From assembly GCA_903907955.1 (NCBI GenBank), contig CAIVPZ010000016.1, positions 123,917 through 187,916 of the forward strand: a DNA stretch of 64,000 nt. Reading direction: 5' to 3'. Origin of the DNA: an uncultured Acetobacteraceae bacterium. Lineage in GTDB: Bacteria > Pseudomonadota > Alphaproteobacteria > Acetobacterales > Acetobacteraceae. Position 1 is the stretch's first letter. Each line of letters opens with the position of its first letter. The position numbers and the translations under genes are program-made. Of the stretch, positions 7,685-49,514 are shown in pieces. The notes under the pieces are model-generated. The model did no database searches. It was not told the origin of the DNA and saw only the letters and a program-made list of their open reading frames with translations.

Positions 7685-7712
7685 GGCCAGGGGGCAGTGC
7701 GGTCCCCTGGCC
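7685..7712. terminator. bidirectional hairpin between the convergent genes marR and bcp (degenerate REP-like)
   Basis: GGCCAGGGG-gcagtgcggt-CCCCTGGCC, a perfect 9-bp stem, between the marR stop (7676) and the bcp stop (7718). Confidence 0.4.
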
Positions 7713-7717
7713 ATTCT

Positions 7718-8182
7718 TCACAGCGCCGCCGCTGCCGCCGCCACATCCCGGGCATGGCCCTCGACCTTTACCTTGTGCCAGGCCCGGGCGATTTTTCCTG
7801 CCGCATCGACCAGAAAGGTCGAGCGTTCGATTCCCATGTACTTTTTTCCGTACATCGCCTTCTCGACCCACACGCCATACGCCTCGGCGGCGGCCTTGGT
7901 TTCGTCGGAGGCGAGCGGGAAGGTGAGGTTGTGTTTGGCGGCGAACTTCTCGATCGGCTTGATCGGGTCGGGTGACACGCCGATCACCTCCAGGCCGAGC
8001 TGCCCCAGTTGCGGCAACGCCTCCTGGAAGGCGCAGGCTTCCTTGGTGCAGCCGGAGGTATCGGCCTTCGGATAGAAATACAGGATGTATGGCCTGCCCA
8101 GCAGCGCCGCGCTGCTGACCGTGCGCCCGCCGCTCGCCGGCAACGCGAATGCGGGCGCCGCATCGCCCTCCTGAACGCTCAT
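7718..8182 (-). CDS. bcp: thioredoxin-dependent peroxiredoxin Bcp
   Basis: YFYPKADTSGCTKEACAF holds the peroxidatic Cys; overall AhpC/TSA fold. 154 aa. Its start codon overlaps the glnE stop by 1 nt. Confidence 0.8.
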   Translation of the reverse strand: MSVQEGDAAPAFALPASGGRTVSSAALLGRPYILYFYPKADTSGCTKEACAFQEALPQLGQLGLEVIGVSPDPIKPIEKFAAKHNLTFPLASDETKAAAEAYGVWVEKAMYGKKYMGIERSTFLVDAAGKIARAWHKVKVEGHARDVAAAAAAL

Positions 8183-11154
8183 CAGCCGATCTCCCCGACA
8201 TGCCGCACGAACAGTGCGCGAACATCCCGCGCCAGCATATCCAAGGTGGCGTGCAGGGCGGGCACGTCAACCGGGGCGGGATCGATCCCGGTGGCCGCAA
8301 CCGCGCGCAGCAGCGCCGCCTCGGCCGCCTCGGACAGTTTTCCCTTCGGCGAACTGCCATAGGTGATGCGCAGCAGCCCCTGCACGGTGCGCCACACCAG
8401 GTCGGCATGGATCAACAGACCGGCATCGTCCGCCGGCACCAGGCCGGCATCGCGCAGACTGGCCAAAGCGTGGCGGATGCCGGAATGCAAGATTCCTGGG
8501 TGGATGGGGGCATGCACCAGTTGCAGCGTCTGGGCGATGAACTCCACCTCGATCTGACCGCCCGGCCGCAGCTTCACATCCCACGGCCCGCCCGGCGGCA
8601 GGTCGCGCAGCAGCCGGGTGCGCATGGCGGCGGCGTCGGCGCGGATGCGGTCGGGCGGGCCGGCATTGGTGATGGCGGTGCGGATCGCCTGCTCGACGCG
8701 GGCGCGCAGCGCCGGCGGGCCGGCCACCACGCGGGCGCGGGTGAGCGCCATGCGTTCCCAGGTCCAGGCGCCGTTATGGTCCACCCCGGCGGCGTGGTAG
8801 CGCTCGAAGGCGCCGAGCGACACCGCCACCGGCCCCTTGTTGCCGGAGGGGCGCAGCCGCATGTCGATGGCGAACATCGGCCCCACCGCATCCGGCGCGG
8901 TGGCGGCGGCGACATAGGCGTGCACCGCGCGGATGAACCACTGGCTGGCCGGCAAGGGGCGCCGGCCGCTGCTTTCGGTGATGTCGGCCGGATGGTCGTA
9001 GATGAACATCAGGTCGAGGTCGGACCCGGCCATCATTTCGCGCGAGCCGGCCTTGCCGAGCAGCACCACCACCATGGCGCCGTCGCGCACCTGGCCGAAC
9101 CGCCCGGCGAAATCGTCCAGCACCCGCGCCAGCAGGGCGTCGAGCGCCGCATCGGCCACCGCCGAGCGCGCCTCGCCGGCGGTGTTGGCGTCGATGCGCC
9201 CCTCCATGGTGGCGACCGAGGTGGAGAAATCCTCGGCGCGGACGGTGGCGAGGATGATTCGGATCGCCTCCTCCAGCCCCCGCGCGTCGGCCAGCCGGGT
9301 GCCCAGCCGGCGGGCCACATCACCTTGCGCGGCCGGCCGCAGCAGCCCTTCCAGCGCCTCCGGCGTGCGGGCCAGGTAGTCGGCCAGCGACGGCGCGGCG
9401 CCGAGCACGCCGGCGGCCCGCTCCAGCAGCGCCGGGTTGCGCTGGAACAGCGACAGCAATTGCACCCCGGCGGGCAGGGTTGCCAGGAACGCATCGAACC
9501 GGGCGAAGGCGGCATCGGGCTGGGCCTGGCGGCCGAGCGCCGCCAGCAGGCCGGGCAGCACGGTGAGCATGAGTTCGCGGGCGCGCTGCGAGCGCATCGC
9601 CCGCACCCGGCCGGCCGACCAGCTGCGCACCGCCTCCACCACCAGACGGATATCGGTGTAGCCCATGGCGGCAAGCGCCGCCTGGGTGGCCGGCGGCGGG
9701 TCGCCGGTGCCGCTGAACTCGAGCGGCGCCGGCGCGCCTTCCTCCTCGGGGGCGGCCACGCCTTCGAACACGTGCAGGTAGTGCGCCTGCACCCGGGTCA
9801 TGTGGTCCAGCAGCACCGCCGCCAGCGCCGCCGCGTCGGGATAGCCCATGAAACAGGCGAACGCTTCGAGCTGGCGGCGCTTCTCGGGCAGCAGGTGGGT
9901 TTGCCGGTCGGCCACCATCTGCAGCCGGTGCTCGACCCGGCGCAGGAAGCCGTAGGCGGCGGCAAGCTCGCCGGCGGTTTCGGGGGCGAGGTGGCCGGCC
10001 TGCGCGAGCAGCGCCAGCGCGTCCAGCGTGCGCCGGGTGCGCAGCGTCCGGTCGCGGCCGCCCCAGACCAGCTGCTGGGTTTGCGCCAGGAACTCGATCT
10101 CGCGGATGCCGCCCTGGCCGAGCTTGACGTTGTGGCCGGCGAGGCGGGCGACCGGGTCCTGGTGGGTGCCGAGCCCGGTGCCCTTGTGCGCGTCGATGCG
10201 CCGCTTCATGGCGTGGATGTCGGCCAGGGCGGCGAAGTCGAGGTGGCGGCGCCAGACGAACGGGCGGATGGCGTCGAGAAAACCCTCGCCGAGGGCGCGG
10301 TCGCCGGCCACCGGGCGCGCCTTCAGCATAGCGGCGCGTTCCCAGTTCTGGCCCATGCTTTCATAATATGCGATGGCGGCCGGCAGGGCGATGCAGGGCG
10401 GCGTGGCGGACGGGTCGGGGCGCAACCGCAGATCGGTGCGGAACACATATCCGTCAGCGTCGCGCGCTTCCATCAAGGCCACTAGACCGCGCGCCATGCG
10501 GGAGTAGAAGGCGCCGGCGGCGTCGCCGTGACGGGTTGGCGAATCAGGGTCGTACAGCAGCACGAGGTCGATATCGCTGGAATAGTTCAGTTCGCGGGCG
10601 CCGAGTTTGCCCATGCCGAGGACGGTGAAGCCGGACCGGGGCGCGGGATCATCGGGATTCGCCAGGCGCAGTTCGCCGGACTCGTGCGCGGCCCGCAGCA
10701 GGTGGGCAACCGCGGCCTGCACCGCGGCGTCGGCAAGGTCGGACAGCGTCTCGGTAACGCGGATCAGATCCCACACCCCGCCGATATCGGCGATCGCGGT
10801 GACCAGGGCGATGACCCGCTTGGCGGCGCGCAGGGTGGCGGCCAGCGTCGCGCGCGGCGCGGTGAGCGGGCAGGCGGCGATCGCCGCCAGGGCGTTCCGC
10901 ACCAGCGGTTCGGGGCCGTCCCGGGTGAAGCTGCACAGCGAAGCCGCCTCGCGCACCGCGAGATCGGCCAGGTACGGGCTGTTGCCGCCCAGGCAGCGCA
11001 GCATGGCGCCGCCGGCCGGGGCGCCGGCGAGGCCGGCCTCGGCCGGACCGAGCGCGGCGAAGCGTTCCACCAGCCGCTCGGCGGCGGCGGGATCGAACGG
11101 GGCCGGCCAGTCCGCCGGGAGCTGAAAGCCGGGTGCGGGGGGCGTTGCGGTCAT
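8182..11154 (-). CDS. glnE: bifunctional glutamine synthetase adenylyltransferase/adenylyl-removing enzyme GlnE
   Basis: 990 aa with two nucleotidyltransferase domains (GMGKLGARELNYSSDIDL and LGKAGSREMMAGSDLDL) and GlnE helical domains. Confidence 0.85.
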   Translation of the reverse strand: MTATPPAPGFQLPADWPAPFDPAAAERLVERFAALGPAEAGLAGAPAGGAMLRCLGGNSPYLADLAVREAASLCSFTRDGPEPLVRNALAAIAACPLTAPRATLAATLRAAKRVIALVTAIADIGGVWDLIRVTETLSDLADAAVQAAVAHLLRAAHESGELRLANPDDPAPRSGFTVLGMGKLGARELNYSSDIDLVLLYDPDSPTRHGDAAGAFYSRMARGLVALMEARDADGYVFRTDLRLRPDPSATPPCIALPAAIAYYESMGQNWERAAMLKARPVAGDRALGEGFLDAIRPFVWRRHLDFAALADIHAMKRRIDAHKGTGLGTHQDPVARLAGHNVKLGQGGIREIEFLAQTQQLVWGGRDRTLRTRRTLDALALLAQAGHLAPETAGELAAAYGFLRRVEHRLQMVADRQTHLLPEKRRQLEAFACFMGYPDAAALAAVLLDHMTRVQAHYLHVFEGVAAPEEEGAPAPLEFSGTGDPPPATQAALAAMGYTDIRLVVEAVRSWSAGRVRAMRSQRARELMLTVLPGLLAALGRQAQPDAAFARFDAFLATLPAGVQLLSLFQRNPALLERAAGVLGAAPSLADYLARTPEALEGLLRPAAQGDVARRLGTRLADARGLEEAIRIILATVRAEDFSTSVATMEGRIDANTAGEARSAVADAALDALLARVLDDFAGRFGQVRDGAMVVVLLGKAGSREMMAGSDLDLMFIYDHPADITESSGRRPLPASQWFIRAVHAYVAAATAPDAVGPMFAIDMRLRPSGNKGPVAVSLGAFERYHAAGVDHNGAWTWERMALTRARVVAGPPALRARVEQAIRTAITNAGPPDRIRADAAAMRTRLLRDLPPGGPWDVKLRPGGQIEVEFIAQTLQLVHAPIHPGILHSGIRHALASLRDAGLVPADDAGLLIHADLVWRTVQGLLRITYGSSPKGKLSEAAEAALLRAVAATGIDPAPVDVPALHATLDMLARDVRALFVRHVGEIG

Positions 11155-11228
11155 GCGGCAGCAGGCTGGCGGTGAGTAGCGCCTTCGGTCAAGCGGTCCG
11201 TCGCATCCTCGGTCGGGCGCTCCGCCGC

Positions 11229-14200
11229 ATGTCCGAGCGGACCATGCGGTATGCCGGCGGCATGCTGCATCTGGCGCTGCAGTTGACCATCGGTCTGGCG
11301 TTCGTCGTGGTGCTGGCCGGCGGCGGGTTTGCCTGGCGGCTGGCGCAGGGGCCGCTGGAAATCGACTGGCTGACCCGCCGTGTGCAGGAAGCGGCCAATG
11401 CCGTCGGGCCGCCGACCCTGGTCATCGGCCGGGCGGCGCTGGCCTGGGAGGGGTTCACCCGCGGGGTCGATAGCCCGTTGAATATCCGGCTGACCGATCT
11501 GGCGCTGCTCGACGGCGCCGGCGTGCGGATCGCCGAGGTGCCGGTGGCCGACGTGTCGCTGTCCGCCGGCTGGCTGGTGCTGGGGCGCATCGTGCCGCGG
11601 GCGGTGGAGTTGCAGGGCGTCAGGCTGCGCGCCCAGCGCAGCGCTGACGGGCATGTCAGCGTCGATCTGGGCGGCGACGGCGATGACGCGGCGGCGCCCG
11701 ACGCAGCGGCAACCCGCGCCGCGCCGCCGTCAGACACGCCGTCCGCCGGGGCCGCGCTGCTGTCGGATCTGCTGCGGGAACTGGCCCGGCCGGCCGGGAC
11801 CGACAGCGGCGCGCAGGATTCGCTCTGGTCGCAAATTCATCGGGTGCGCATCAGCAATGCCGCCCTGACGGTGGACGACCGCCAGCTCGGCGCGACCTGG
11901 CGGGCAAGCCAGGTCGGGCTCGACGTGGTTCGCCTTGGCGGGGGCGGGGCGGAGGCGAATGCCGAACTGATGCTGTCGCTGGGCGGGGAGCGCCTGCAGG
12001 CAACCGCCCATGCCACCCTGCCGGCCGGTGGCGGTCGCGCCGACGTGCAGGCGCATCTGGCGCCGGTGGTTCCGGCGCGGCTGGCGGAACTGGCCCCCGG
12101 GCTGGCGGCGCTGCGGATGCTGGACGCACCGGTGATGCTGTCCGCCACCGCGACGATGGGGGCGGATCTGATCCCGGCGGAGGTGAAGCTGCAGGCGCGG
12201 GTCGGCGCCGGACGCCTTCAGCTGGGTGACGGGAGCATGCCGCTGATCGGCGCCCTGGCCGACGCGGAAGGATCGCTGACCACCGCGATGGTGCGGCTGC
12301 AACGGCTGGAGGTGGCGCCCCGGCCGGATGGTCCCCGGACGGTGCTGCGCGGCAACCTGCTGGGGGTACGCGCCGGCGGCCGGCTGGCGGCCAACATCAT
12401 CGTCGAGCTGGACCGGGTTGCCTTCGCCGACCTTCCCGAACTGTGGCCGGAAGGGGTGGGCGGTCGCGGCACCCGCCCATGGATCACCGCAAACATCACC
12501 GGCGGGACCGCCGGCAACGGCCGCATCGAGGTGCACCTGACCGCACCGGCGGATCTGTCGGATGTCCAGGTGAACAGCCTGTCGGGCGGCATCGAGGGGC
12601 AGGACCTGACGGTGCACTGGCTGAGCCCGGTGCCGCCGATGGAGCATGTCAACGGCAAGCTGGCGTTCCTCTCGCCCGACGATCTGGAGATCGGGGTGAC
12701 CAGCGGGCGCCAGGCCGGCGAGGGCAAGGGGGGCGCAAATCTCGCGCTGCAGTCCGGCTGGGTGCGCATCAGCGGGCTGTCGGCGCGGCACCAGTTCATG
12801 ACCATCGATGCCGACCTCGCCGGGCCGGTGCCCGACCTGCTGGCCGTGCTGAAGCACCCGCGGCTGCACCTGCTCGACCGCCGCCCGATGGACCTGCGCG
12901 ACCCGGCCGGCACCGTGACCGGCCGGCTGACGCTGACCCGGCTGCCGCTGGAGGCCAACCTGACGGTGGACGATGTCCATATCCAGGCCAGCGGCAAGCT
13001 GACCCGGCTGCATCTTGGCGGCATCGCCGGCGGACGCGACATCGACCAGGGCACGCTGCAGTTCGATGCGTCCAATGACGGGCTGAAGCTGCGCGGCACG
13101 GCGCTGCTCGCCAGCATCCCCTCGCAGTTTCAGGTCGATCTCGATTTCCGCAACGGCGGCCCTTCCCAGGTGCTGCAGAAAGTGAGCGTGACCGGCACTG
13201 CCACCGCGCGCGAGCTGGCGATCGCCGGCCTGGACACCGCCGGCCTGCTGGAGGGACCGGCGGCGTTGCAGGCGACGCAGCTGTCGCGCCGCGACGGCCG
13301 CGGCGAGGTGCTGGTGCGGGCCGACCTTGGCCGCGCGGTGCTGCAGGTGCCGCGGCTGAACTTCCGCAAGCCGGCCGCCCAGCCGGCGACCGCCGAACTG
13401 CACATGACCATGAACGACGAGCGGATCACCGGCATCGACCGGCTGCGGATCGACGGCGCGGGAATCGCCGTGGCGGGGCGGGTGGTGTTCGCCGACGGGA
13501 TGGCGCAGACCGTGCAGCTTGACCGCGTCCGGCTGGGCGAGGCGACCGAGGCGAGCGGTGAGCTGCGTATTCCCGGCCGGCCCGGTGCCCCCTGGGTCGC
13601 CAGCCTGACCGGCCGCAGCATCGATGCCTCCGCCGAGTTCGGCCGTGGTGAGGCCGCCCCGCGACCGGGCGCGGAGGAGGCGGACCGGCAAGGGCCGCCC
13701 TGGCGGGTTGAGGCGCATTTCGACCGGGTGGTGCTGGGCGGGGAGGGGCGGGTGCTGAGCACGGTTGCCGCCACCGCCGAGAGCGATGGCCGGGTCATCC
13801 GGCAGGCGAAGCTGACCGGCCAGACCGGTGCCGGCGCCGCCTTGCGCCTGGAGATCGTGCCCGATCGCGTCACCCGCACGCTGATCGGCTCCGCCGAGGA
13901 TGCCGGCGGGTTGCTGGGCGCGCTCGGTCTGCTGGACGACATGGTCGGCGGCCGGCTGACCATCCGCGCCACCTATGACGATCGCGCGGCCGGCCATCCG
14001 CTGGAGGGAAGCACCGAAATCGTCGATTTCCGCATGCGCAACGCCCCGGCGCTGGCCAAGCTGCTGCAGGCCATGACGCTGTACGGGCTGGTCGAGACGC
14101 TGCAGGGCCAGGGCCTCGGGTTCAACCGCCTGATCGCTCCGTTCCGGCTGTCGCGCGACGGGCTGGACCTGACCGATGCGCGGGCGTTCAGCGCCTCGCT

Positions 14201-14513: not shown

Positions 14514-14566
14514 GAGTTTGCCGGCGCTCCCGAAACGACCCCTCCTGGCGAAAGGGCCGCCGCAAG

Positions 14567-17851: not shown

Positions 17852-17906
17852 GATGGACGGGTCCGGGGCTGCTCGGGGCAGACCGGCTAGCACAGGAGCA
17901 GAACGG

Positions 17907-19031
17907 ATGGAAATGCTGCGCGCCATCGGGCTGATGAGCGGCACCTCGCTCGATGGCGTCGATGCCGCCTGGCTGGAGACCGACGGTGTGCTTGTCGGCC
18001 GCCTGGGGCCGTCGCTGACGCTGCCCTACGATGCTGCGCTGCGCGCCGATCTGCGTCGCCTGCTGGACCGGGCGCCGGCGCTGCCCCGCGACGATGCCGG
18101 CGTGGCCGAGATCGCCGCGCGGCTGACTGAGCGGCATGTCGAGGCGGTGCGGGCGATCGGCATGCCGGCGGACATCGTGGGATTCCATGGCCAGACCATC
18201 CTGCACCGGCCGGACCGGCGGCTGACCTGGCAGATCGGCGACGCGGATTTACTGGCGCGCGCCACCGGGCTGCGCGTGGCCTGGGATTTCCGCAGCGCGG
18301 ATGTGGCCGCCGGCGGCGAAGGGGCGCCGCTCGTGCCGGCCTACCACGCCGCCCTGGCAGCAAAGCTGCCGCTTCCCCTGGCGGTGCTGAACATCGGCGG
18401 GGTGGCCAACGTGACCTTCATCGGCGCGGACGGCGCGTTGCTGGCCTGCGATACCGGGCCGGGCAACGGTCCCCTCGACGATTGGGCTGCGTGCCACGCC
18501 AGCCTGGCGTGCGACCGTGACGGCGTGCTGTCGGCGGCGGGGCGGGTCGATGCCGGGGTGCTGGCGCGGTTGCTGGCCGACCCCTGGTTCCGCCGTCCGA
18601 TGCCCAAGTCGCTGGACCGGCTGGCGTTCGGCGCGACGCTGGCGGCGAGCGGGCTGGACGCGCTGGCCGCTTGTGATGGCGCGGCGACGCTGGTGGCCTT
18701 CATCGCCGGGGCGGTGGCGCGAATCCCCTTGCCGGAGATGCCGCGGCGCTGGCTGGTGTGCGGCGGCGGGCGGCACAATCCCAGCATCATGGCGGCGCTG
18801 CGGGCGCGGTTGGGCGCGGTGGCGCCGGTGGAGGACGTCGGCTGGGACGGCGACGCGCTGGAGGCACAGTGCTTCGGCTTTCTTGCCGTGCGGGTGCTGC
18901 GCGGGCTGGCGTTGAGTTTTCCGGGCACGACGGGGGTGGGGCGCCCCTTGCCGGGGGGGCGGATTCAGGAAGGCCAGGGCTCTGCCCTGGACCCGCAAGG
19001 GGTCAGGGGACCCCTTGACCCCATGCCGTAA
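17907..19031 (+). CDS. anmK: anhydro-N-acetylmuramic acid kinase AnmK; the last ~20 codons read through a REP-like element
   Basis: Start [19 protein letters not shown], the AnmK N-terminal signature, at an internal ATG of track ORF 17787..19031. The C-terminus ...[19 protein letters not shown] is encoded by the double-hairpin repeat at 18974-19017. Confidence 0.8.
18974..19017. repeat. REP-like double-hairpin element, copy 2, orientation B
   Basis: CCAGGGC-tct-GCCCTGG, acccgc, AAGGGGTC-aggg-GACCCCTT. Same architecture as the copies at 23615, 35902 and 49471, with compensatory stem changes. Confidence 0.5.
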
Positions 19032-19049
19032 GCAAACGCCTTGGCCGCC

Positions 19050-19715
19050 TCAGTCGGCGGCCAGGGCCATTAAGCGTCGCGCCATGGTCTTGCGCACATA
19101 GTCCTCGACATGTTCGGCGATGATGTCGGCATGGCTGGCGAAAACGTGGTCGCCCCCGGCCAGCACGCGGTAATCGACCGAAACGCCCTTCTGGGTGTTC
19201 AACTTGTCGACCAGTTTCTTGACGGCAGGCTCCGGCACGAGTTCGTCGGTGTCACCGTGCAGCATGAGGCCGCCGCATGGACACGGTGCCAGGAAGCCGA
19301 AATCGTAGTGGTTGGCGGGCGGCGCAACGCTGACCCAGCCCGAGATTTCCGGGCGGCGCATGAGCAGTTGCATGCCGATGAAGGCGCCGAAGGAGTAGCC
19401 GGCGATCCACAGCCCGCCCGAATTGGGGTTGACCGTCTGCATCCAGTCGAGCGCCGCGGCGGCGTCGCCGATCTCGCCGATGCCGCCGTCGTAACGCCCC
19501 TGGCTGCGCCCGACGCCGCGAAAGTTGAAGCGCATCACCGAAAAACCGAGGCGCTGAAACGCCTGGTAGTTCGTATACGTGATGCGGTTGTTCATGGTGC
19601 CGCCATGCAGCGGATGCGGATGCAGCAGCAAAGCCAGCGGCGCCCCCGCTTCCTTCGAGTGATGGTAGCGACCTTCCAACCGGCCGTCAGGGCCGGCGAA
19701 CATGACTTCAGGCAT
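19050..19715 (-). CDS. alpha/beta-fold hydrolase (dienelactone-hydrolase-like)
   Basis: Start MPEVMFAGPDGRLEGRY. HPHPLHGG and the nucleophile elbow GYSFGA. 221 aa. Confidence 0.6.
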   Translation of the reverse strand: MPEVMFAGPDGRLEGRYHHSKEAGAPLALLLHPHPLHGGTMNNRITYTNYQAFQRLGFSVMRFNFRGVGRSQGRYDGGIGEIGDAAAALDWMQTVNPNSGGLWIAGYSFGAFIGMQLLMRRPEISGWVSVAPPANHYDFGFLAPCPCGGLMLHGDTDELVPEPAVKKLVDKLNTQKGVSVDYRVLAGGDHVFASHADIIAEHVEDYVRKTMARRLMALAAD

Positions 19716-20490
19716 GGCGTTCCGAAATCCGTTTCCTGTTCGCGCCGGCCGGGACCGACCGGGCTGAGACCCTAGCGAAGCGACCGGTCCGCTGTTGCCG
19801 ACCGGGAGCATGGATGTGTGATGGCAATCGCTTACCCGCCGACACCACCAATTCGACCAGATCAGCTGCGCCCGGCATCAGATGGGCATGGCCTTCGCGT
19901 TTCGGGTATGCCCATTGCAGGGAAGAGTCATGCAAATAGGCATGATCCTTGCCAGATAGCGAGTCCGATGCGTGGCGATACGCGAAATCTTGACCCCGTG
20001 GCTGCGGAATGCTTGCCTGCACGCGGCACCGGGTTAGATCGGCGGCCACGTGGGGGCGTGACCCCGTTTCGAACTGAACCGTCCTGAACGCATCCGTTGA
20101 CGCCAACGACCTGCCCCGCACGCCATCACCGCTCCTGTCGATAGCTAACTGATTCGGTACCGCTCCGGGCGGGGACGCGACCCCGAAGCGGAGCCGACTA
20201 TAGGTCGGCCGGCGCAGCTTTCATAACGGAAATGTGGCATGGGGTTCATGTTTTTGTGGAATTTTGTCAACCGGCTCAGGAACGGGATCCGCTGGCGGGT
20301 TCGTGCATGACCGCGTTGTTCCGCCGCCTCGGGAGGTGCGCTCCGATCTGGCGTCGCATTGCCGATGTGCGGTGGCGGGCGCATCTGTATTTGCCGGCAC
20401 GGCCGTTGGCCCGGATCGGGCGTTTCCCGACCGGGATTGACCGCCGCCCGGCGCGATCCGGGACGATCCAGCCCGCAGCGGAGTAGGCCC

Positions 20491-22058: not shown

Positions 22059-22073
22059 CCCTACATCAGCCGC

Positions 22074-23592: not shown

Positions 23593-23614
23593 GCGCTTTT
23601 TTCGGAATGGGGTG

Positions 23615-23657
23615 CAGGGGGCCACTGCCCCCTGCCGGGTCCAGGGCAGCGCCCTGG
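23615..23657. repeat. REP-like double-hairpin element, copy 3, orientation A
   Basis: CAGGGGGC-cact-GCCCCCTG, ccgggt, CCAGGGC-agc-GCCCTGG. Located between the fdx stop and the mnmA start. Identical over about 52 bp to the copy at 35902. Confidence 0.55.
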
Positions 23658-23685
23658 CCTTTATTCTTGTTGTCGGGATGCACCC

Positions 23686-24806: not shown

Positions 24807-24881
24807 GGCGGCGTAGCTCAGCGGTAGAGCAGGGGAATCATAATCCCTTGGTCGGTGGTTCAAATCCGCCCGCCGCTACCA
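24807..24881 (+). tRNA. tRNA-Met (anticodon CAT), elongator type
   Basis: Cloverleaf folded by hand: acceptor GGCGGCG/CGCCGCT; D-arm GCTC-agcggta-GAGC; anticodon stem GGGGA/TCCCT with loop aTCATAa; T-arm GGTGG-ttcaaat-CCGCC; discriminator A; CCA encoded. A T-rich tract follows (gggtttgtttttc). Confidence 0.75.
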
Positions 24882-35367: not shown

Positions 35368-35460
35368 GCGCGGGATGTAGCGGGGGGCAAGGGTTGCGGC
35401 TAGGCGGGGCGTGCTCTAAAGCGCCGCGCCTATCACCGCCGAATTCTGAAGGAGCTTTCC

Positions 35461-35883
35461 ATGGCGACCGAGCGCACGCTTTCCATCCTCAAGCCGGACG
35501 CCACGCGGCGCAACCTGACCGGGAAGATCAACGCGAAGTTCGAGGCGGCCGGGCTGCGCATCGTGGCGCAGAAGCGGCTGCAGCTCTCGGTGGCGCAGGC
35601 CGAGGCGTTCTATGGCGTGCACCGCGAGCGCGGGTTTTTCCGCGATCTGGTGACCTTCATGGTGTCCGGCCCGGTGGTGGTGCAGGTGCTGGAAGGCGAG
35701 GGGGCGGTGGCGGCCAACCGCGAGATCATGGGGGCCACCAACCCGGCCAATGCCGCGCCGGGCACGGTGCGTGCAGAGTTCGCCGAGAGCATCGAGGCCA
35801 ATTCGGTGCATGGCTCGGACAGTGCCGAGAACGCCGCTGTTGAGATCGCGTTCTTTTTCGCGGGCATCGAGATCGTAGGCTGA
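35461..35883 (+). CDS. ndk: nucleoside-diphosphate kinase
   Basis: [23 protein letters not shown]...[20 protein letters not shown] with the active-site His in NxxHGSD. Confidence 0.9.
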
Positions 35884-35901
35884 ATCTATCGGAGCGGGGT
35901 G

Positions 35902-35944
35902 CAGGGGGCCACTGCCCCCTGCCGGGTCCAGGGCAGCGCCCTGG
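35902..35944. repeat. REP-like double-hairpin element, copy 4, orientation A, between the convergent genes ndk and purN
   Basis: CAGGGGGC-cact-GCCCCCTG, ccgggt, CCAGGGC-agc-GCCCTGG. Identical to copy 3. Confidence 0.55.
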
Positions 35945-35950
35945 CCTTCC

Positions 35951-36574
35951 TTACTTCGGCGCGGGGTTAATGAGCGCTGCGTCCGGCGGCGGTAAAATTG
36001 CCGTCCCCTCGATGAAAGCCCGCAGCGCCAGCGGGTAGAGCAAGTGTTCCTGCGCCAGCACGCGGGCAGCAAGCGTCTGCGCGTCGTCGCCCGGCAGCAC
36101 CGGCACGGCTGCCTGGCCGAGGATGGGGCCGTCGTCCATGGCCTCGGTGACCAGGTGCACGGTGCAGCCGTGCAGCCTGACGCCGGCGGCGAGCGCGCGG
36201 GCGTGGGTGTCCAGGCCGGGGAAGGCGGGCAGCAGGCTGGGGTGGATGTTGAGCATCCGGCCGGCGTAGCGGCCGACCAGATACGGAGTCAGCAGGCGCA
36301 TGTAGCCGGCGAGGCAGATGATCTCGATGCCGGCCGTGTCCAGCGCTTCGGCCAGGCCGGCCTCGTGGGCGGCGCGGTCGCGCCGGTACGGGCGGTGGTC
36401 CACGGCGGCGGTGGCAATGCCGGCGGCGCGCGCGGTGTCCAGGCCCGGGGCGTCCGGATTGTTCGACAGCACCAGGGCGATGACGGCCGGGTAGGCTGGG
36501 TCGGCGGCGGCGCGGAGCAGCGAGGCCATGTTGGAGCCGCGTCCGCTGATCAGGATGCCGACCCGGCGTTTCAC
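35951..36574 (-). CDS. purN: phosphoribosylglycinamide formyltransferase PurN
   Basis: GTG start; [20 protein letters not shown]. Formyl-transferase motif [10 protein letters not shown]. Start overlaps the purM stop (GTGA). Confidence 0.8.
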
Positions 36575-37638: not shown

Positions 37639-37717
37639 GCCGGACCTCGTTAAGATGCGGCCATGACCATATGGACCATGGCAGGATTGGGGGCAGGATC
37701 GGGGCGCGCAAACAACC

Positions 37718-39498: not shown

Positions 39499-39527
39499 GC
39501 GATTCCGCCCTGGGTGGTGTTGTCCCG

Positions 39528-40256: not shown

Positions 40257-40265
40257 GGTTGGCGG

Positions 40266-42512: not shown

Positions 42513-42617
42513 TGCCGCCGGTGTCGCGCGCCGGGATGGCGGGGCGGTCGCGCGCCAGAACCAGCAGAAGAAGGGGATTGACGCGCATGCGCGAGCCGGG
42601 CACGCGTTCCGCCTGAC

Positions 42618-44135
42618 ATGCCATACACGCCGCCCCCCGACCTTCCGCGCTGCGCCATGGTCGATCTCGGTTCGAATTCCGTTCGCCTGGTTATCTACGA
42701 GGGGCGCGGCCGTAATCCGGTGGCGATCTTCAACGAGAAGGCGGTGCTGCGGCTGGGCCGCGGGCTGCAGTCCACCGGCCTGCTGAACGCCGAGGGAGAA
42801 GCGGCGGCGCTGACGGTGATGAACCGCTACAAGGCCATCGCGCAGGCCATGGGGGCGCAGCCGTTCGAGGTGCTGGGAACCGCCGCGGTGCGCGATGCCG
42901 AGAACGGCCGGGCCTTCGTGGCGACCCTGCAGGCGCGGATGCCGGGCGTGCCGGTCCGCATTCTGTCCGGCGAGGAGGAGGCGGCGCTGGCCGCCGAGGG
43001 ATTGCTGTGCGGCATCCCGACCGCCGACGGCATCCTGGCTGATATCGGCGGCGGCTCGCTGGAGCTGGTGCGGCTGGAGCGCGGGCAGCGCGGGGTGGCG
43101 AAGACGCTGCGCCTGGGGGTGATCCGGCTGGCCGAGCGGTGCGGCGGCGATCTCGCGCAGGCGCGCGCGATGGTGGAGGCCGACCTGGCGGGGGTGCCCT
43201 GGCTGGCGGAGGCTGCCGGGCGCGATCTGTATCTGGTGGGCGGGGCGTGGCGGGCGCTGGCGCGCATCCACATCGCCCAGACCAGCTATCCGCTGAACAT
43301 GGTGCACCATTACACCATCGGGCGTGAGGAGGCGCGCGACCTGACCGGGGTGGTTGCCGGGGCATCGCGCCGCGCGTTGGAGCGCATGCCCGGGGTGCCG
43401 CGGCGGCGGATCGATGACCTGCCGTTCGCCGCGGTGGTCCTGCGCCGGGTGTTGCGCAGCACCGGGGCGCGGCGCGTGGTGTTCAGCGCCAACGGGCTGC
43501 ACGAGGGCTGGTACGCCTGCCTGCTGTCGCCGGCGGAGCGGGCACGGGACCCGCTGCTGGCGGCGGGACAGGAAGCCGCGCGCCGGTTCGGCCGCGACCC
43601 GGCATTGCCGCCGGCGCTGCTGGCGTGGACCGACCCGCTGTTTCCCGGCGAGGCCGGTGAGGCGCGGCGGTTGCGCGAAGCGGCGTGCTGGATGTCGGAT
43701 ATCGGTAGCCATGAGCACCCGGAATACCGGGCCGAGCAGGCTTTCCTGCGCGTGCTTCGGCTGTCCAGCATCGGGCTGGACCACCATGCGCGCGCCTTCC
43801 TGGGGCTGACGCTGGCGCTGCGCTATGAGGCCGAGCCGGGCGCGGCGTTTCTGGCCACCGCGGACATGCTGCTGGGTGAGGAAGCGAAGCGCCGGGCGAC
43901 CATCCTGGGGGTGGCGATGCGGCTGGCCTACACGCTTTCGGCCGGCACGCCGGACCTGCTGACGGGGACGCAACTGCTGGTGAGCGACCTGCTGACGTTG
44001 CGGCTGGCCGAGGACACCGGTGTGTTTTCCGGCGACAACCTGACGCGGCGGCTGGAACGGCTGGGTGAGGCGATGGGGCTGCAAACGACGACCGAGGTGG
44101 CGCCGCTGGCCGCCGCAGATCGGCCGGCGGCTTAG
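42618..44135 (+). CDS. ppx: exopolyphosphatase / guanosine pentaphosphate phosphohydrolase (Ppx/GppA family)
   Basis: MVDLGSNSVRLVIYE ASKHA-fold N-terminus, DIGGGSLEL, and a C-terminal HD-like region. Confidence 0.8.
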   Translation: MPYTPPPDLPRCAMVDLGSNSVRLVIYEGRGRNPVAIFNEKAVLRLGRGLQSTGLLNAEGEAAALTVMNRYKAIAQAMGAQPFEVLGTAAVRDAENGRAFVATLQARMPGVPVRILSGEEEAALAAEGLLCGIPTADGILADIGGGSLELVRLERGQRGVAKTLRLGVIRLAERCGGDLAQARAMVEADLAGVPWLAEAAGRDLYLVGGAWRALARIHIAQTSYPLNMVHHYTIGREEARDLTGVVAGASRRALERMPGVPRRRIDDLPFAAVVLRRVLRSTGARRVVFSANGLHEGWYACLLSPAERARDPLLAAGQEAARRFGRDPALPPALLAWTDPLFPGEAGEARRLREAACWMSDIGSHEHPEYRAEQAFLRVLRLSSIGLDHHARAFLGLTLALRYEAEPGAAFLATADMLLGEEAKRRATILGVAMRLAYTLSAGTPDLLTGTQLLVSDLLTLRLAEDTGVFSGDNLTRRLERLGEAMGLQTTTEVAPLAAADRPAA

Positions 44136-44188
44136 AGCGCTTGCAGGCTGACCGTAAACGGTCAGCGCGCTCTAGCTCTTTGTTTTGG
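44133..44188 (+). terminator. intrinsic terminator of ppx
   Basis: TAGAGCGC..CTGACCG-taaa-CGGTCAG..GCGCTCTA hairpin starting in the ppx stop codon, followed by GCTCTTTGTTTTGG. Confidence 0.5.
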
Positions 44189-44338
44189 CGAGCAACTTTA
44201 TCGGCCGGCTGTCGCTGGTCTGGCCGATGTTGCTCTAGCGAACCATCGGCCAGACCGGTCGATTCAGGTGCGTGCCGGGACCAGGCGCAGAAGCGCGGCG
44301 GCCGATGACAGCCAGCTTGAACAGGCTCCAGGCCGGGG

Positions 44339-45526
44339 TCAGTTCGCCGCCGCGATCAGCTTGATGCGCTTGCCTTCCACCCCGAGGGCGATGCGGCCCT
44401 GCTTGAGCGCCTGGGCGTCGGCGCCGAACACCTCATGGCGCCAGCCGTGCAGCACCGGCACGTCGGGCGCATCCTCGGATGCAAGGCGGTCGATGTCGTC
44501 GCTGGAGGCGACAAGTTTGGGGGCCACGTGGTGCTGCTCGCATTTGGCGGCGAGCAGCACCTTCAGCAGCGAAACCAGGGCGGGCGACGGGCGCTGGCCG
44601 TCACGCGTGCTGGGGGCTGATGGCAGCGCATCCTCGGGCAGGGCGCGGGCCTCGGCGACGGCGGCGAGCAGGCTGGCGCCGATGCGTCCTTCGGCGAAAC
44701 CGCGGGTGATGCCGCGGGCGCGGGCCAACTGGTCGGGTGTCTCAGGGGCGGTGGCGGAGAGCTCCAGCAGTGTCTCGTCCTTGAGCATCCGGCTGCGCGG
44801 GATGTTGGCGCGCTGGGCCTCGCGCTCGCGCCAGGCGGTGATGGCGCGCAGCACGCCCAGCATGCGGCGGTTGCTGGTGCGCGGGCGCAGCCGCTCCCAC
44901 AGCACTTCGGGGTCGGGGCGGTAGGTCGCGGGGTCGGCGAGCAGCGCCATCTCCTCGGCCACCCACTCGAGTCGCCCATCCTTCTCCAGCCGTGCCAGCA
45001 GGCGTTCATAGACGCGGCGCAGATGGGTGACGTCGGCGGCGGCGTAGTTGATCTGGGCGGGTGAGAGCGGCCGGGCGGACCAGTCGCTGAAGCGGTGGGC
45101 CTTGTCGATGTGTCCGCCGGTCAGGGCGGAGACGAGGGAGTCGTAGCCGACCTGGTCGCCAAAGCCGGCCACCATGGCGGCGACCTGGGTGTCGAACAGC
45201 GGGCGGGGGACGTCGCCGAAACGGAGGACGAAAATCTCGATGTCCTGCCGGGCGGCGTGGAACACCTTTTCGACCGCGGTGTCGGCGAGCAGGGCGCCGA
45301 GCGGGGCGAGGTCCAGGCCGGGGGCGAGGGCGTCGACCACGGCAACTTCCGATTCGCTGGCAAGCTGGACCACGCAGAGTTCTGGCCAGTATGTGCGCTC
45401 GCGCATGAACTCGGTGTCGACGGTGACGAAACGCTGGGTGCGCAGGCGGGAGCAGAGCACATCCAGCTCGGCGGTGTCGGTGACCAGGAGGGGCGGCGGG
45501 AATTCCGCGCGGGCATTGCGAGGCAT
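44339..45526 (-). CDS. rnd: ribonuclease D
   Basis: DEDDy 3'-5' exonuclease motifs (VTVDTEFMRE and YAAADVTHL), followed by an HRDC domain. Confidence 0.8.
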   Translation of the reverse strand: MPRNARAEFPPPLLVTDTAELDVLCSRLRTQRFVTVDTEFMRERTYWPELCVVQLASESEVAVVDALAPGLDLAPLGALLADTAVEKVFHAARQDIEIFVLRFGDVPRPLFDTQVAAMVAGFGDQVGYDSLVSALTGGHIDKAHRFSDWSARPLSPAQINYAAADVTHLRRVYERLLARLEKDGRLEWVAEEMALLADPATYRPDPEVLWERLRPRTSNRRMLGVLRAITAWREREAQRANIPRSRMLKDETLLELSATAPETPDQLARARGITRGFAEGRIGASLLAAVAEARALPEDALPSAPSTRDGQRPSPALVSLLKVLLAAKCEQHHVAPKLVASSDDIDRLASEDAPDVPVLHGWRHEVFGADAQALKQGRIALGVEGKRIKLIAAAN

Positions 45527-45652
45527 GGATTGGTTCTACACGCCTGAACGGTGCCGAGGAAAGCCGGCCCGTGGAATTGCGACACCGCTGGACACGCTGG
45601 TGCCGCCGTTGTAGCCCCCGCTGCTGACGCGGCATGACAAGGTGAGGGGGCG

Positions 45653-46585
45653 ATGGGAACGACTCTTGAGCACGCTCTGGCCGCGCATGCCGATGTGTGG
45701 ATCGATCTGAACAAGCCGGACGAGGCGCGGCTGTGCGAGGTGGAGGTGGCCACCGGGCTGAGCCTGCCCCGGCTTGAGGACCTGCAGGAGATCGAGAGCT
45801 CCAGCCGGCTCTATGTGGACGGGGGCGCCTTGTTCATGAGTTTCCCGGTGCTCACGCCGTACCTGCCCGGTGAGCCGACGCGGTCGGTGCCGGTGGGCCT
45901 CGTGCTGCAGCCTGGGCGGCTGGTCACGCTGCATTACGCTGACGCGCCGATCTTCGACCAGGCGATCGAGCGGGCGCGGGTCATCGCCCCGCGCGCGAAG
46001 GCCAGCGAGATTTTCGTCACCGTGGTCGAGGAGGTGGTCGAGCGGGTCGCCGACGTGCTGGAGCGGGCCAACGAGGAAATGGACCGGATCAGCCAGCAGA
46101 TATTCCGCGAGGCGCCTGACAAGGGCGGCGTGACCGAGCAGATGCGGCGCACGCTGCGCAGCATCGGGCGGATCGGCGAACTGGTGAGCAAACTGCGGGA
46201 GACCATGCTGGGCATCAGCCGGATGCTGCCGTTCCTGGCCGCCCAGGCCGGCTGGATGGCCGACGAGTTGAAGCCGCGGCTGGAGACGGTGCGGCTCGAT
46301 GTGCGCAGCCTGCTCGACCATGACACCCACCTGAGCCAGCGTGTGCAGTTCCTGCAGGAGGCGACGCTGGGTTTCATCAATATCGAACAGAGCAGCATCA
46401 TCAAGATCATGACGGTGGTGTCGGTCGTGGCCATGCCGCCGACGCTGATCGCCAGCATCTATGGGATGAACTTCGAAAATATGCCCGAGCTGCATTGGGC
46501 GTGGGGATACCCGTTCTCGCTGGCATTGATTGTGATCAGCGCGGTGCTGCCGCTGCTGTGGTTCCGCGCCCGCCGCTGGCTGTGA
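45653..46585 (+). CDS. corA: magnesium/cobalt transporter CorA
   Basis: C-terminal TM1 with the YGMNF signature (IASIYGMNFENMPEL) and a second TM helix. Confidence 0.8.
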   Translation: MGTTLEHALAAHADVWIDLNKPDEARLCEVEVATGLSLPRLEDLQEIESSSRLYVDGGALFMSFPVLTPYLPGEPTRSVPVGLVLQPGRLVTLHYADAPIFDQAIERARVIAPRAKASEIFVTVVEEVVERVADVLERANEEMDRISQQIFREAPDKGGVTEQMRRTLRSIGRIGELVSKLRETMLGISRMLPFLAAQAGWMADELKPRLETVRLDVRSLLDHDTHLSQRVQFLQEATLGFINIEQSSIIKIMTVVSVVAMPPTLIASIYGMNFENMPELHWAWGYPFSLALIVISAVLPLLWFRARRWL

Positions 46586-46592
46586 CCCGGGA

Positions 46593-46644
46593 TTGACGTT
46601 CTCCCTTTGACTTGCGCCCCTTGACTTGCCCCCCCTTGACTTGC
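46593..46644. repeat. four tandem direct repeats containing TTGAC(TTGC) at 14-15 bp spacing in the corA-aspS intergenic region
   Basis: gaTTGACgttctccct, tTTGACTTGCgcccc, TTGACTTGCCcccccc, TTGACTTGCCagggg. Followed by a G-run and the aspS ATG at 46695. Confidence 0.5.
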
Positions 46645-46694
46645 CAGGGGGCGGGGGGTTGTCTGCCGGCCCTCTGAACCCCGGGACGAGCCCC

Positions 46695-48479
46695 ATGCAC
46701 GCCTATCGGACCCATACATGTGGCGCCCTGCGCGCCAGCGACGCCGGCCAGCCTGCCCGCCTGTCGGGATGGGTGCACAGCAAGCGGGACCATGGCGGGC
46801 TGCTGTTCATCGACCTGCGCGACCATTTCGGCATGACGCAGATCGTGTTCGCGGCGGGGTCGGCGGCCTTCGAGACGATGGACCATGTGCGGCCGGAGAG
46901 TGTGATCACGGTGACCGGCACGGTGGTGCTGCGCGAGCCGGGCACGGTGAACCCGAAGCTGCCATCCGGCGAGGTGGAGTTGCGGGCGGCCGAGGTGGTG
47001 GTGCAGTCGGCGGCGGACGTGCTGCCCATGCAAGTGGCGGGCGAGGAGAAGTATCCGGACGAGATCCGCCTGAAATACCGCTTCATCGACCTGCGCCGGG
47101 ACCGCGTGCACCGCAATATGATGCTGCGCGCAGGCGTGATCTCCAGCATCCGCCGGCGCATGATCGAGGCCGGGTTCACCGAGTTCCAGACGCCGATCCT
47201 GACCGCTTCGTCGCCCGAGGGCGCGCGCGACTTCCTGGTGCCGGCACGGCTGCACCCGGGCAAGTTCTATGCGCTGCCGCAGGCGCCGCAGCAGTTCAAG
47301 CAGCTCATCATGGTGGCCGGGTTCGACCGCTACTTCCAGATCGCGCCGTGCTTTCGCGATGAGGCGAGCCGGGCGGACCGCTCGCCAGGCGAGTTCTACC
47401 AGCTTGATTTCGAGATGAGCTACGTCACCCAGGAGGACGTGTTCGCCACCATCGAGCCGGTGATTGCCGGCGTGTTCGAGGAGTTCGCCGAGGGACGCGG
47501 GGTGACCAGGCCGCCGTTTCCGCGGATTCCCTATGAGGAAGCGATGCTGCTCTACGGCACCGACAAGCCGGACCTGCGCAACCCGCTACGGGTGACCGAC
47601 GTGACGGCGCAGTTTGCCGGGTCCGGGTTCGGGCTGTTTGCCAAGATTGCGGCCTCCGGCGGGGTGGTGCGGGCCATTCCGGCGCCGGGCACGGCGGCCA
47701 ATCCGCGCAGCTTCTTCGATAAGCTGAACGAGTGGGCGCGCGAGCAGGGGGCCGGCGGGCTGGGTTATATCGTGTTTGAGGCCGACGGGCCGAAGGGGCC
47801 GATCGCGCGCAACCTGGAGCCGGAACGGGCCGAGGCGATCCGGCTGGCCTGCGGGGTGCAGCCTGGCGATTCGGTGTTCTTTGCCGCCGGCAAGCGCGAC
47901 GAGGCGCCGAAATTTTCGGGGGCGGTGCGCACCAAGCTGGGCCATGATCTCGGGCTGATCGGGCAGGGGCGCTTTGATTTCTGCTGGATCACCGATTTCC
48001 CGATGTACGAGATGAATGAGGAGTCGGGGCAGATCGATTTCAGCCACAACCCGTTCAGCATGCCGCAGGGCGGCATGGAGGCGCTGCTTACGCAGGACCC
48101 GCTGACCATCAAGGCGTTCCAGTACGATATCATCTGCAACGGGGTCGAGCTGTCCTCCGGGGCGATCCGCAACCACCGGGCGGATATCATGGTGAAGGCA
48201 TTCGAGATTGCCGGGTACTCGGCGGACGATGTGGAGGCGCGGTTCGGTGGCATGCTGAACGCATTCCGCTATGGCGCGCCGCCGCATGGCGGATCGGCGC
48301 CGGGGATTGATCGCATCGTCATGCTGCTGGCCGATGAGCCGAACATCCGCGAGGTGATCCTGTTCCCGCTGAACCAGCAGGGCGAGGATCTGATGATGGG
48401 GGCGCCGGCTGGGGTGCCGGCAGCGCGGCTCAAGGAATTGTCGCTGAAGCTCGACTTGCCGCCCAAGGCGAAGGGGTAA
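46695..48479 (+). CDS. aspS: aspartate--tRNA ligase
   Basis: [48 protein letters not shown]-fold N-terminus. Class II motifs FRDE (motif 2) and [14 protein letters not shown] (motif 3). Internal ATG of track ORF 46626..48479. Confidence 0.85.
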
Positions 48480-48654
48480 CTGTCCTGGCCGGCAGGTTTT
48501 GGCGTGTGGCTCCGTCCTTGATCGGCTGACCGCGTCGTAGCCTTCTGGCTTTGGGTGGGGCCCGGGGTAACGCCTTTGGTGGCGCGGCGTCTGCGCGCTG
48601 GCGTTGGCGCGCGACCGTACCTATCTTGCCACGACTGCACCCCGGAGTATCCGC

Positions 48655-49449
48655 ATGCGCTTTCCCGCCCTGACCGTTCTGGCTGCGCTGCTGATCGGCG
48701 TTGTGCCGGCCGCCGCGGCGGACCAGGCCCTGCCGCTGGCTGCTCATCGCGCGCTGTATCAGTTGACGCTGGAGCAGTCGCGCGGCGCCGAGGTGGTGGG
48801 CGCAACCGGAACCATGGCATTCGAGATCCTTGACGCCTGTGATGGCTGGGCGACGCACCAGCGGCTTGAGATGACGGTCAGCAACCGCGACGGCCAGGAT
48901 ATCGAGATGCTGTCAGACTACACGACCTGGGAAAGCAAGGATGGCTTGAGCATGCGATTTCGCATGCGGCAGACCACCGAGTCAGCGGTGACCAGCGAGG
49001 TGGCGGGCGATGCCACGCTGGAACGGCAGGGCGGGCCGGGCGAGGTGCACTACCGTTTGCCTGAGCCGGGCACGAAGATGCTGTCGCCAGGAACGCTGTT
49101 TCCGATGGCCCATACCGAGGCGATACTGGCGGCAGCGCGCGCGGGCAGGAAGTTCATTGCCCTGCCGCTGTTCGATGGCACCGGCGAGAAGGGGGGGCAG
49201 GACAGTTCGGTGACGATCACCGGTTGGGGCGGACCGAAGGCCGGCAAGTGGCCGGAACTCTCGGGACTGTCCAGTGGACGGGTGCACGTTGCCTTCTTTG
49301 ACCGCGATGCCAGTAGCCAGCTGCCTGACTATGAAGTGAGCATGCGCTACTGGGATAATGGCGTGGCGGATGATCTGAGCATGGATTTCGGTGATTTCGT
49401 TATGAAGGGGACACTGAGCAAGCTTGCGATGCTGCAGCCCGGTTGCTGA
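48655..49449 (+). CDS. DUF1849 / cell-envelope-integrity EipB-like periplasmic protein
   Basis: Start MRFPALTVLAALLIGVVPAAAA is a signal peptide. YQLTLEQSRG...FEILDACDGW... matches the DUF1849 family. Function by analogy to Brucella EipB only. Confidence 0.5.
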   Translation: MRFPALTVLAALLIGVVPAAAADQALPLAAHRALYQLTLEQSRGAEVVGATGTMAFEILDACDGWATHQRLEMTVSNRDGQDIEMLSDYTTWESKDGLSMRFRMRQTTESAVTSEVAGDATLERQGGPGEVHYRLPEPGTKMLSPGTLFPMAHTEAILAAARAGRKFIALPLFDGTGEKGGQDSSVTITGWGGPKAGKWPELSGLSSGRVHVAFFDRDASSQLPDYEVSMRYWDNGVADDLSMDFGDFVMKGTLSKLAMLQPGC

Positions 49450-49470
49450 GGGGCGTTGGATGGAGAAAGC

Positions 49471-49514
49471 CCAGGGCGCTGCCCTGGACCCGCCAGGGGG
49501 CAGTGGCCCCCTTG
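49471..49514. repeat. REP-like double-hairpin element, copy 5, orientation B
   Basis: CCAGGGC-gct-GCCCTGG, acccgc, CAGGGGGC-agtg-GCCCCCttg. Reverse complement of copies 3 and 4. Confidence 0.55.

Follow-up and report, generated by a model that had tools for sequence, protein, structure and literature searches.

A probable REP-like family of GGGT-tagged double hairpins at gene ends in Acetobacteraceae and other bacteria

A 64,000-nucleotide stretch of DNA from an uncultured freshwater Acetobacteraceae species (positions 123,917 to 187,916 of contig CAIVPZ010000016.1, assembly GCA_903907955.1; hereafter the window) carries four copies of a short element that consists of two stem-loops, each behind a GGGT tag. 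These copies probably belong to a family of non-autonomous, mobile hairpin repeats without coding capacity that resembles repetitive extragenic palindromes (REPs), i.e., to a new family of a known kind of repeat. Stem-loop palindromes, extragenic placement at gene 3′ ends, and compensatory changes in the stems, three of the broad hallmarks of REPs, were found. A covariance model built from 28 family members and run unfiltered on the whole window identified exactly four full double-hairpin copies, scoring 78 to 86 bits (E values of 1e-23 to 1e-25), while the next independent match reached 13.6 bits. All four lie where an original prediction, made from the letters of the sequence, had placed them.

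Anatomy and structural conservation of the element

Read on the strand that carries GGGT, every copy follows the same plan: a weakly conserved yGGAAT head, GGGGT, hairpin 1, CGGGT, hairpin 2, and a CCTTnCTT tail, beyond which conservation fades. Hairpin 1 (22 nt) has a 9-bp stem (GCAGGGGGC/GCCCCCTGC) and a 4-nt loop, and hairpin 2 (17 nt) has a 7-bp stem, CCAGGGC-AGN-GCCCTGG, which is a perfect 7-3-7 inverted repeat. The element is a direct tandem of two units, each composed of a GGGT tag and a stem-loop. Its dimensions correct those originally proposed: the first stem has 9 rather than 8 bp, the spacer between the hairpins is the 5-nt CGGGT rather than 6 nt long, and the conserved flanks yGGAAT-GGGGT and CCTTnCTT extend the element from ~45 to ~62 bp. 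The 21-nt core GGGTCCAGGGCAGCGCCCTGG occurs four times in the window at up to one mismatch, against 0.02 matches expected by chance, and hairpin 1 occurs three times at up to three mismatches, against 0.03 expected.

Copies A (23604 to 23667) and B (35891 to 35954) lie on the + strand, score 85.6 bits each (E value of 1.4e-25 for copy A), and are identical across 53 bp at unlinked sites, so that the identity noticed earlier holds and its extent moves from ~52 to 53 bp. In copy A, the GGAAT-GGGGT head is followed by hairpin 1 at 23614 to 23635 (loop CACT), the linker CGGGT, hairpin 2 at 23641 to 23657 (CCAGGGC-AGC-GCCCTGG), and the tail CCTTTATT, with an RNA fold of -39.1 kcal/mol; the hairpins of copy B are at 35901 to 35922 and 35928 to 35944. 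Copy C (18964 to 19027, 83.0 bits) lies on the - strand, with hairpin 2 at 18974 to 18990 and hairpin 1 at 18996 to 19017. The arms of its hairpin 1, CAAGGGGTC/GACCCCTTG, differ from those of copies A and B by three compensatory pairs (G-C to C-G, C-G to A-T, and G-C to T-A), each altered on both sides, which bears out the compensation previously described for this copy. Copy D (49461 to 49524, 78.1 bits), also on the - strand, has hairpin 2 at 49471 to 49487 and hairpin 1 at 49494 to 49513, the latter with one A/G mismatch at the second pair. RNA folding assigned -37 to -40 kcal/mol to the copies. All four are single, none being part of a head-to-head pair, and their flanks are mutually unrelated.

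The proposal that structure is conserved rather than sequence held up well beyond the window. Of the 125 copies retrieved with the hairpin 2 pattern (among the matches listed), 113 carry a perfect hairpin, G-T pairs allowed, directly upstream of CGGGT; this is a count on raw sequences, independent of the covariance model. These 113 hairpins are built from 62 distinct arms, including AT-rich arms in Clostridia, with stems mainly of 8 to 9 bp and loops of 3 to 4 nt. In a model-based alignment of the best 150 of the model matches (148 distinct copies), which was fitted to the covariance model, 99.4% of the pair cells are paired and compensatory changes affect 14 of the 16 pairs; none of 500 shuffles and no slid register approached the observed pairing. 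Hairpin 2, unlike hairpin 1, is nearly invariant, which is partly an artefact, since the loci were fetched by its exact pattern; the copies found by the model do vary in hairpin 2, with compensation (CG to UA or GC and AU to GC, as well as CGAGGGC/GCCCTCG in Rhodovastum). Two further structures were tried and rejected: a helix or terminal inverted repeat around the pair of hairpins, whose pairing equaled that of the shuffled control in every register, and a G-quadruplex formed by the G-runs, which are not conserved in Methylobacterium copies.

Occurrence, placement, and turnover of copies

The genome-wide pattern search suggested by the original prediction was carried out on a collection of species-representative genomes with CGGGTCCAGGGCAGNGCCCTGG, a query anchored on a single hairpin 2 sequence, and yielded at least 120 loci in public genomes (these and other fetched loci are cited below by L numbers where they have to be told apart). 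Among the matches listed, the majority come from Acetobacteraceae or Rhodospirillales assemblies, the isolates are Methylobacterium, Methylorubrum, Gluconacetobacter johannae, Neoroseomonas, and Solidesulfovibrio aerotolerans, and other assemblies are labeled, as deposited, Magnetococcus, Desulfovibrionaceae, Nitrosovibrio, Clostridia/Oscillibacter, Acidobacteriota, and Victivallaceae. Two "Janthinobacterium" contigs with Acetobacteraceae-type copies are probably mis-binned. Exact 22-mers are common to different phyla. The covariance model found 194 matches in 662 kb of fetched genome loci and 87 more in an additional 288 kb that included 20 predicted viral contigs, which carry the element often several times per contig. 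The chromosome of Rhodovastum atsumiense has five model matches in 20.7 kb, to be compared with four in the 64 kb of the window, and a Rhodovastum plasmid also carries the element, with 91% identity. Metagenomic contigs often end inside the element (L230/L231, at 1870, and L103, L022, L062, L080, L087, and L090), as would be expected where a repeat of high copy number interrupts assembly.

The number of hairpin units per array varies from one to seven between taxa. Direct tandem arrays of three to seven GGGT-tagged hairpins were found in Desulfovibrionaceae, in one Acidobacteriota assembly, and in one Proteobacteria assembly (L001, ~1480 to 1670; L036, ~7620 to 7770; L118, 695 to 845; L058, ~6610 to 6750). 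Another variant has an extra ~27-nt hairpin with CGTC-like ends (GTCGTGCGC...GCGTGACG) between hairpins 1 and 2 (L047, 2151 to 2231; L051, 2569 to 2657; L072; L087, 48 to 123; L098, 5974 to 6061 and 7881 to 7968), and this insert may be a CGTC-type REP nested in the element. Two Pseudomonas plasmids carry a variant that ends in a T-run. In one of them (Pseudomonas sp. Z8 plasmid NZ_CP107550.1; L144, 2496 to 2555), the related double hairpin ends in GATTTTT, lies between umuC and a replication-initiator gene upstream of iteron-like tandem repeats; no other copy examined has a clear T-run.

To place the copies relative to genes, we used a heuristic caller based on the rule GC3 > GC1 > GC2, which reproduces the Pfam-verified genes of the window. 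The intergenic copies are distributed over 23 convergent, 39 same-direction, and 4 divergent gene pairs, in agreement with the predicted siting at gene 3′ ends, often between convergent genes. Among the same-direction cases, the GGGT strand coincides with the gene strand in 21 and is opposite to it in 18. These counts indicate that regions containing only promoters are avoided and that orientation with respect to transcription is irrelevant. Copies called inside genes are located, in the sample examined, at the ends of reading frames and not in protein cores. Genes that face the tail usually have their stop codon ~0 to 30 nt from it, and the distance is more variable for genes that face the head. 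Of the 150 best matches, 52 form close pairs, and 25 of these 26 pairs are head to head, one is tail to tail, and none is in tandem.

Within the window, the Pfam families agree with the gene names at the sites concerned (AnmK, alpha/beta hydrolase, 2Fe-2S ferredoxin, MnmA, NDK, EipB-like, MarR, and Bcp-type peroxiredoxin, with Fer2 for fdx, tRNA_Me_trans for mnmA, EipB_like, and Formyl_trans_N for purN). Copy A lies between two genes of the + strand, 22 nt past the fdx stop (23592) and 24 nt before the mnmA start (23686), and copies B, C, and D each lie between convergent genes. Copy B lies 18 nt past ndk and occupies the 67-nt gap between this gene (stop at 35883) and the minus-strand purN, whose stop codon (35951 to 35953) falls within the tail of the copy, CCTTCCTTAC. 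Copy C is contained in the last 19 codons of the anmK frame (17907 to 19031), the stop codon of which (19029 to 19031) is beyond the element; the AnmK Pfam domain extends to residue 387 of 414, and the convergent hydrolase gene occupies 19050 to 19811 on the minus strand. Copy D, between convergent genes as well, follows the eipB-like gene at 21 nt from its stop (49449). The copies had been described as immediately following stop codons, which is true of A, B, and D (22, 18, and 21 nt) and not of the anmK copy, inside the reading frame. Copy D is 75 nt from a separate 12-bp GC-rich hairpin, AAGGCCCGCTGC-AGG-GCAGCGGGCCTT (49599 to 49625, minus strand), which continues on that strand into the T-rich run CTTCTTTT; hairpin and run together (49591 to 49625) have the appearance of a canonical intrinsic terminator serving the gene at 49652 to 51616 on the minus strand.

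Comparison of filled and empty sites in related genomes documents turnover. We fetched 80 metagenomic anmK loci for this purpose. The site between anmK and the hydrolase gene is empty in L145, L146, L149, and L222, which share 75 to 84% AnmK identity with the window and have 9 to 15 nt between the two stop codons; AnmK of the closest relatives ends in ..GRI(T/A)EP*. At the same position, the window has one copy, L150 has two copies head to head, and L148 has an apparent deletion remnant. In the window, the AnmK frame runs through copy C, the native stop is replaced, and ~18 residues are gained. The eipB site is empty in L103. Copy B is more persistent: five other assemblies of the same species share its 67-nt spacing between ndk and purN, several metagenome assemblies encode identical Ndk and PurN proteins at this same spacing, and the copy is retained in a sister species with 94% PurN identity. 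To judge from the distance between the genes, another relative, with 86% PurN identity, has probably kept it as well. No empty site was found for copy B: it is present in all of the same-species assemblies and in L230, the nearest relative for which DNA was available. In Rhodovastum atsumiense, the closest named relative (81% PurN identity), the ndk/purN intergenic region contains different copies in the opposite orientation. The anmK, eipB, and ndk/purN comparisons show that copies arise, persist across species-level divergence, and get lost.

Several other features lie near these sites. A small hairpin at 19042 to 19063 (TGGCCGCC-TCAGTC-GGCGGCCA) spans the hydrolase stop codon and predates the insertion of copy C, since it is conserved in the element-free L145, L146, and L149. 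Just downstream of anmK, two loci from other Alphaproteobacteria (L191 and L203) carry two to three copies of a different repeated hairpin, CTCTCCCGC-TTCG-GCGGGAGAG, which looks like a separate REP-like family. On the Rhodovastum chromosome (L232, 10722 to 10880), a 52-residue frame with a hydrophobic C-terminal half separates purN from the elements upstream of ndk and has no counterpart in the ndk/purN interval of the window. Unrelated to the hairpin family is a pair of 60-nt AT-rich inverted repeats in this 70% GC genome (1439 to 1498 and 24989 to 25048, 77% complementary), the second arm of which lies just downstream of the only tRNA gene (24807 to 24878).

A single hairpin at 7685 to 7712, with an 11-bp stem (GGCCAGGGGGC-AGTGCG-GTCCCCTGGCC) and assigned to neither strand, sits between the convergent genes marR and bcp and has head-like and tail-like flanks (GAAGG and CCATTC). 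It had been listed as a fifth, degenerate copy. The hairpin is indeed stable (-32 kcal/mol, z = -4.6 on the + strand), whereas its membership in the family was not upheld: matched to the two-hairpin model it scores 10.7 and 10.3 bits on the two strands (E values of 0.2 to 0.3). L194 and L207 have comparable family-type single hairpins at their anmK 3′ ends. That the hairpin at 7685 to 7712 is a one-hairpin relative of the family is plausible but unproven.

Competing explanations and possible mode of spread

The most serious rival explanation holds that the copies are intrinsic or bidirectional terminators, or mRNA 3′-end stabilizers, selected separately at each gene end and similar only because they share an optimum. 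Such a role would account for the location of all copies at gene 3′ ends, the avoidance of divergent regions, and the very stable folds (-37 to -40 kcal/mol). Furthermore, a simple terminator scan accepts hairpin 2 of copy A together with the CCTTTATTCT that follows it, the related Pseudomonas plasmid copy ends in a T-run, and unrelated hairpins occupy the same anmK 3′ position in other taxa. However, the 53-bp identity of unlinked copies and the 22-mers shared across phyla cannot result from convergence, and a U-run is mostly missing beyond the last hairpin on either strand (CCTTnCTT at the tail, ACCCCAT on the other strand), which argues against classical termination. Copy A is the only one of the four window copies that appears terminator-like in the scan, copy D adjoins a separate candidate for a canonical terminator, the closest relatives lack any element at the anmK site, and the 21 versus 18 same-direction cases reveal no preferred orientation relative to the upstream gene. 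We thus regard selection as terminators or stabilizers as unlikely, a secondary RNA-level effect being compatible with a REP-like mobile family. A chance likeness or local duplication confined to this region would suit the mere four copies visible in the window and is refuted by the 0.02 matches expected by chance, the hundreds of copies in other genomes, and the unrelated flanks, which leave it practically no probability. In the search that the original prediction had proposed for telling a family from a local duplication, the copies turned out to be numerous, to vary with compensation, and to be associated with gene ends.

Two other rivals invoke a DNA-level function or a different type of mobility. 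According to one of them, which we judge improbable, the element is of the type of miniature inverted-repeat transposable elements (MITEs), mobilized by a DDE transposase through terminal inverted repeats (AAGnAAkGG ... CCTTnCTT). It is short, dispersed, and non-autonomous, and its CCTTnCTT tail, once reverse-complemented, is similar in consensus to the head flank (A-n-G-g-A-A-t-G-G); yet head and tail pair at 0.52, against 0.50 to 0.55 in shuffled controls in any register, and no direct duplication surrounds the anmK insertion (one site pair). Nor did a recurrent transposase-like family emerge beside the copies, the top shared protein clusters including an ABC-transporter ATPase, a histidine kinase, and a short-chain dehydrogenase, and the variation from one to seven hairpin units across taxa is easier to reconcile with arrays of units than with an element of fixed extent between inverted repeats. 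The other reading, less probable still, takes hairpin 2 for a site, double-stranded and immobile, at which a dimeric protein (a regulator, for instance, or a factor of the nucleoid or gyrase type) binds DNA. The perfect 7-3-7 inverted repeat and its almost invariant sequence, unlike that of hairpin 1, speak for such a site, as do the REPs of E. coli, which are bound by host proteins, DNA gyrase among them; the part of the REP literature consulted also describes recruitment of integration host factor and a proposed role in supercoiling. Nevertheless, part of this invariance comes from fetching by exact pattern, the copies found by the model vary with compensation, the sites are at gene ends and not at promoters, and the adjacent hairpin 1 conserves nothing but its shape. 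Binding of host proteins could be a secondary property of the element.

The strand that folds is probably the GGGT strand, on which G-T wobbles are commoner than A-C mismatches (15 to 3, or 18 to 6 over 88 distinct variants), an asymmetry that rests on related copies and is suggestive only. Given the random orientation with respect to transcription, such a strand-specific fold would point to selection on single-stranded DNA rather than on RNA. In a REP-like mobile family of this kind, new copies would probably arise by way of a single-stranded intermediate with the GGGT strand folded, and a nuclease or transposase supplied in trans probably reads the tag and the hairpin, a precedent being the action of the HUH/Y1 enzyme RAYT on GTAG-tagged REPs. 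Copies would then persist where they are harmless, i.e., after stop codons and between convergent or same-direction genes. Once transcribed, the hairpins (~-38 kcal/mol) would probably hinder 3′ exonucleases or weakly stop transcription, as a side effect and not as the reason for the family. An effect of the element on read-through or on the stability of upstream mRNA is plausible in view of these hairpins, although we consider it somewhat less likely than not; mobilization specifically by a RAYT-type enzyme, proposed by analogy, seems rather doubtful.

A number of observations weigh against mobility as outlined here. Neither the window nor 1.27 Mb of fetched DNA contains a RAYT/IS200-like gene detectable by blastp with E. 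coli RayT, a RAYT profile, or the HUH...Y motif, a weak negative because the profile derives from 120 enterobacterial RAYTs, a database search with RayT having yielded no other relatives among the matches listed, and is not diverse, and because RAYTs are single-copy genes, of which ~1 is expected in 1.27 Mb. A tblastn search of plasmids with RAYT returned homologues from other taxa and no matches from Acetobacteraceae or Methylobacterium. The element carries neither the GTAG tag of RAYT-linked REPs nor the CGTC tag of alphaproteobacterial REPs. No target-site duplication was discernible at anmK, the sole filled/empty pair compared, and the two + and two - copies of the window exhibit no strand bias and hence no sign of replication-linked insertion.

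Comparison with known repeat families

REP-like repeats shape bacterial genomes: assemblies break at them, reading frames are lengthened or cut short by them, and they can alter mRNA stability. The present family accounts for spurious "hypothetical proteins," for C-terminal extensions such as that of AnmK, and for contig breaks in metagenomic Acetobacteraceae assemblies. Its anatomy is clear, with one tag before a variable hairpin and another before a constant one, its hosts range very widely, it offers a contrast of filled and empty sites, and Rhodovastum atsumiense (G2-11, OW485601.1) provides a cultured host with a complete genome in which the mobilizing enzyme and the RNA effect can be studied directly. 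No Rfam family reaches its gathering score on the element: the only above-threshold match in the window is a tRNA, and at copy A the highest-scoring family below threshold, Clostridiales-2, attains 16.3 bits where its gathering score is 58.6. None of the exact core sequences turned up in the searchable full-text literature, in which keyword searches retrieved only general REP papers.

Among conserved dispersed motifs, the TRIT of mycobacteria is terminator-like. Our element shares with intrinsic terminators a stable GC-rich hairpin right after stop codons, often between convergent genes, and departs from them in the missing U-run, in having two hairpins with conserved unpaired tags, and in the evidence for insertion and loss. 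The Rickettsia palindromic elements, REPs located within genes, find a parallel in the anmK copy, which is read as protein with a gain of ~18 residues; however, the GGGT family touches only the ends of reading frames in the sample examined, and not protein cores. The bacterial interspersed mosaic elements (BIMEs) of E. coli are likewise intergenic composites of modular palindromic units. They alternate inverted Y and Z REPs with defined linkers, whereas both units here have the same orientation and are separated by a 5-nt tag, for which reason the BIME-type label originally attached to the element does not apply.

The closest parallels are two groups of tagged palindromes. Like the GTAG REPs and REPINs associated with RAYT in E. 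coli, Pseudomonas, and Stenotrophomonas (Nunvar 2010, PMC2817692; Bertels & Rainey 2011, PMC3116915), the element has short GC-rich stem-loops with an unpaired conserved 5′ tag, a probably high copy number, an extragenic location after genes, and compensatory stem changes with some G-T pairs. Inverted pairs are also frequent in other genomes (25 head to head among the best 150 matches), with none in the window. The tag is nevertheless GGGgT/CGGGT and not the GT[AG]G carried by all published RAYT-linked REPs in Table 1 of Nunvar (2010; PMC2817692), none of which, within that table, matches the element. Further differences are the direct tandem of two different hairpins, with arrays of up to seven units elsewhere; the head-to-head partners, which often have different first hairpins and need not form one long hairpin; and the hosts, which are mainly Alphaproteobacteria and other groups outside Gammaproteobacteria. 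The CGTC REPs of Alphaproteobacteria resemble the element, as described by Di Nocera et al. (2013; PMC3733652), in their alphaproteobacterial hosts, mostly head-to-head dimers, stems of 8 to 9 bp, loops of 4 to 5 nt, tagged end, and short tail. According to the same paper, they have no known dedicated transposase, are missing in Acetobacteraceae, and possess a CGTC (or TGTC/CCTC) tag, A-T stem starts, and a CCA tail, as opposed to the GGGT tag, C-G or G-C stem starts, and CCTT tail found here. The paper further states that palindromic repeat families without conserved terminal motifs exist and that many more are likely.

Beside the GTAG and CGTC groups, the GGGT-tagged units might, as a tentative proposal, constitute a third large super-family of tagged palindromic repeats. 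Its nearly invariant unit, CGGGTCCAGGGCAGNGCCCTGG, would owe its spread to a dedicated copying enzyme or its maintenance to a conserved host factor, and the super-family would reach across Alphaproteobacteria, Magnetococcia, Desulfobacterota, Betaproteobacteria, Firmicutes, and Acidobacteriota at least. If so, the partner of this third super-family would reveal a new mobilization system for miniature DNA repeats.

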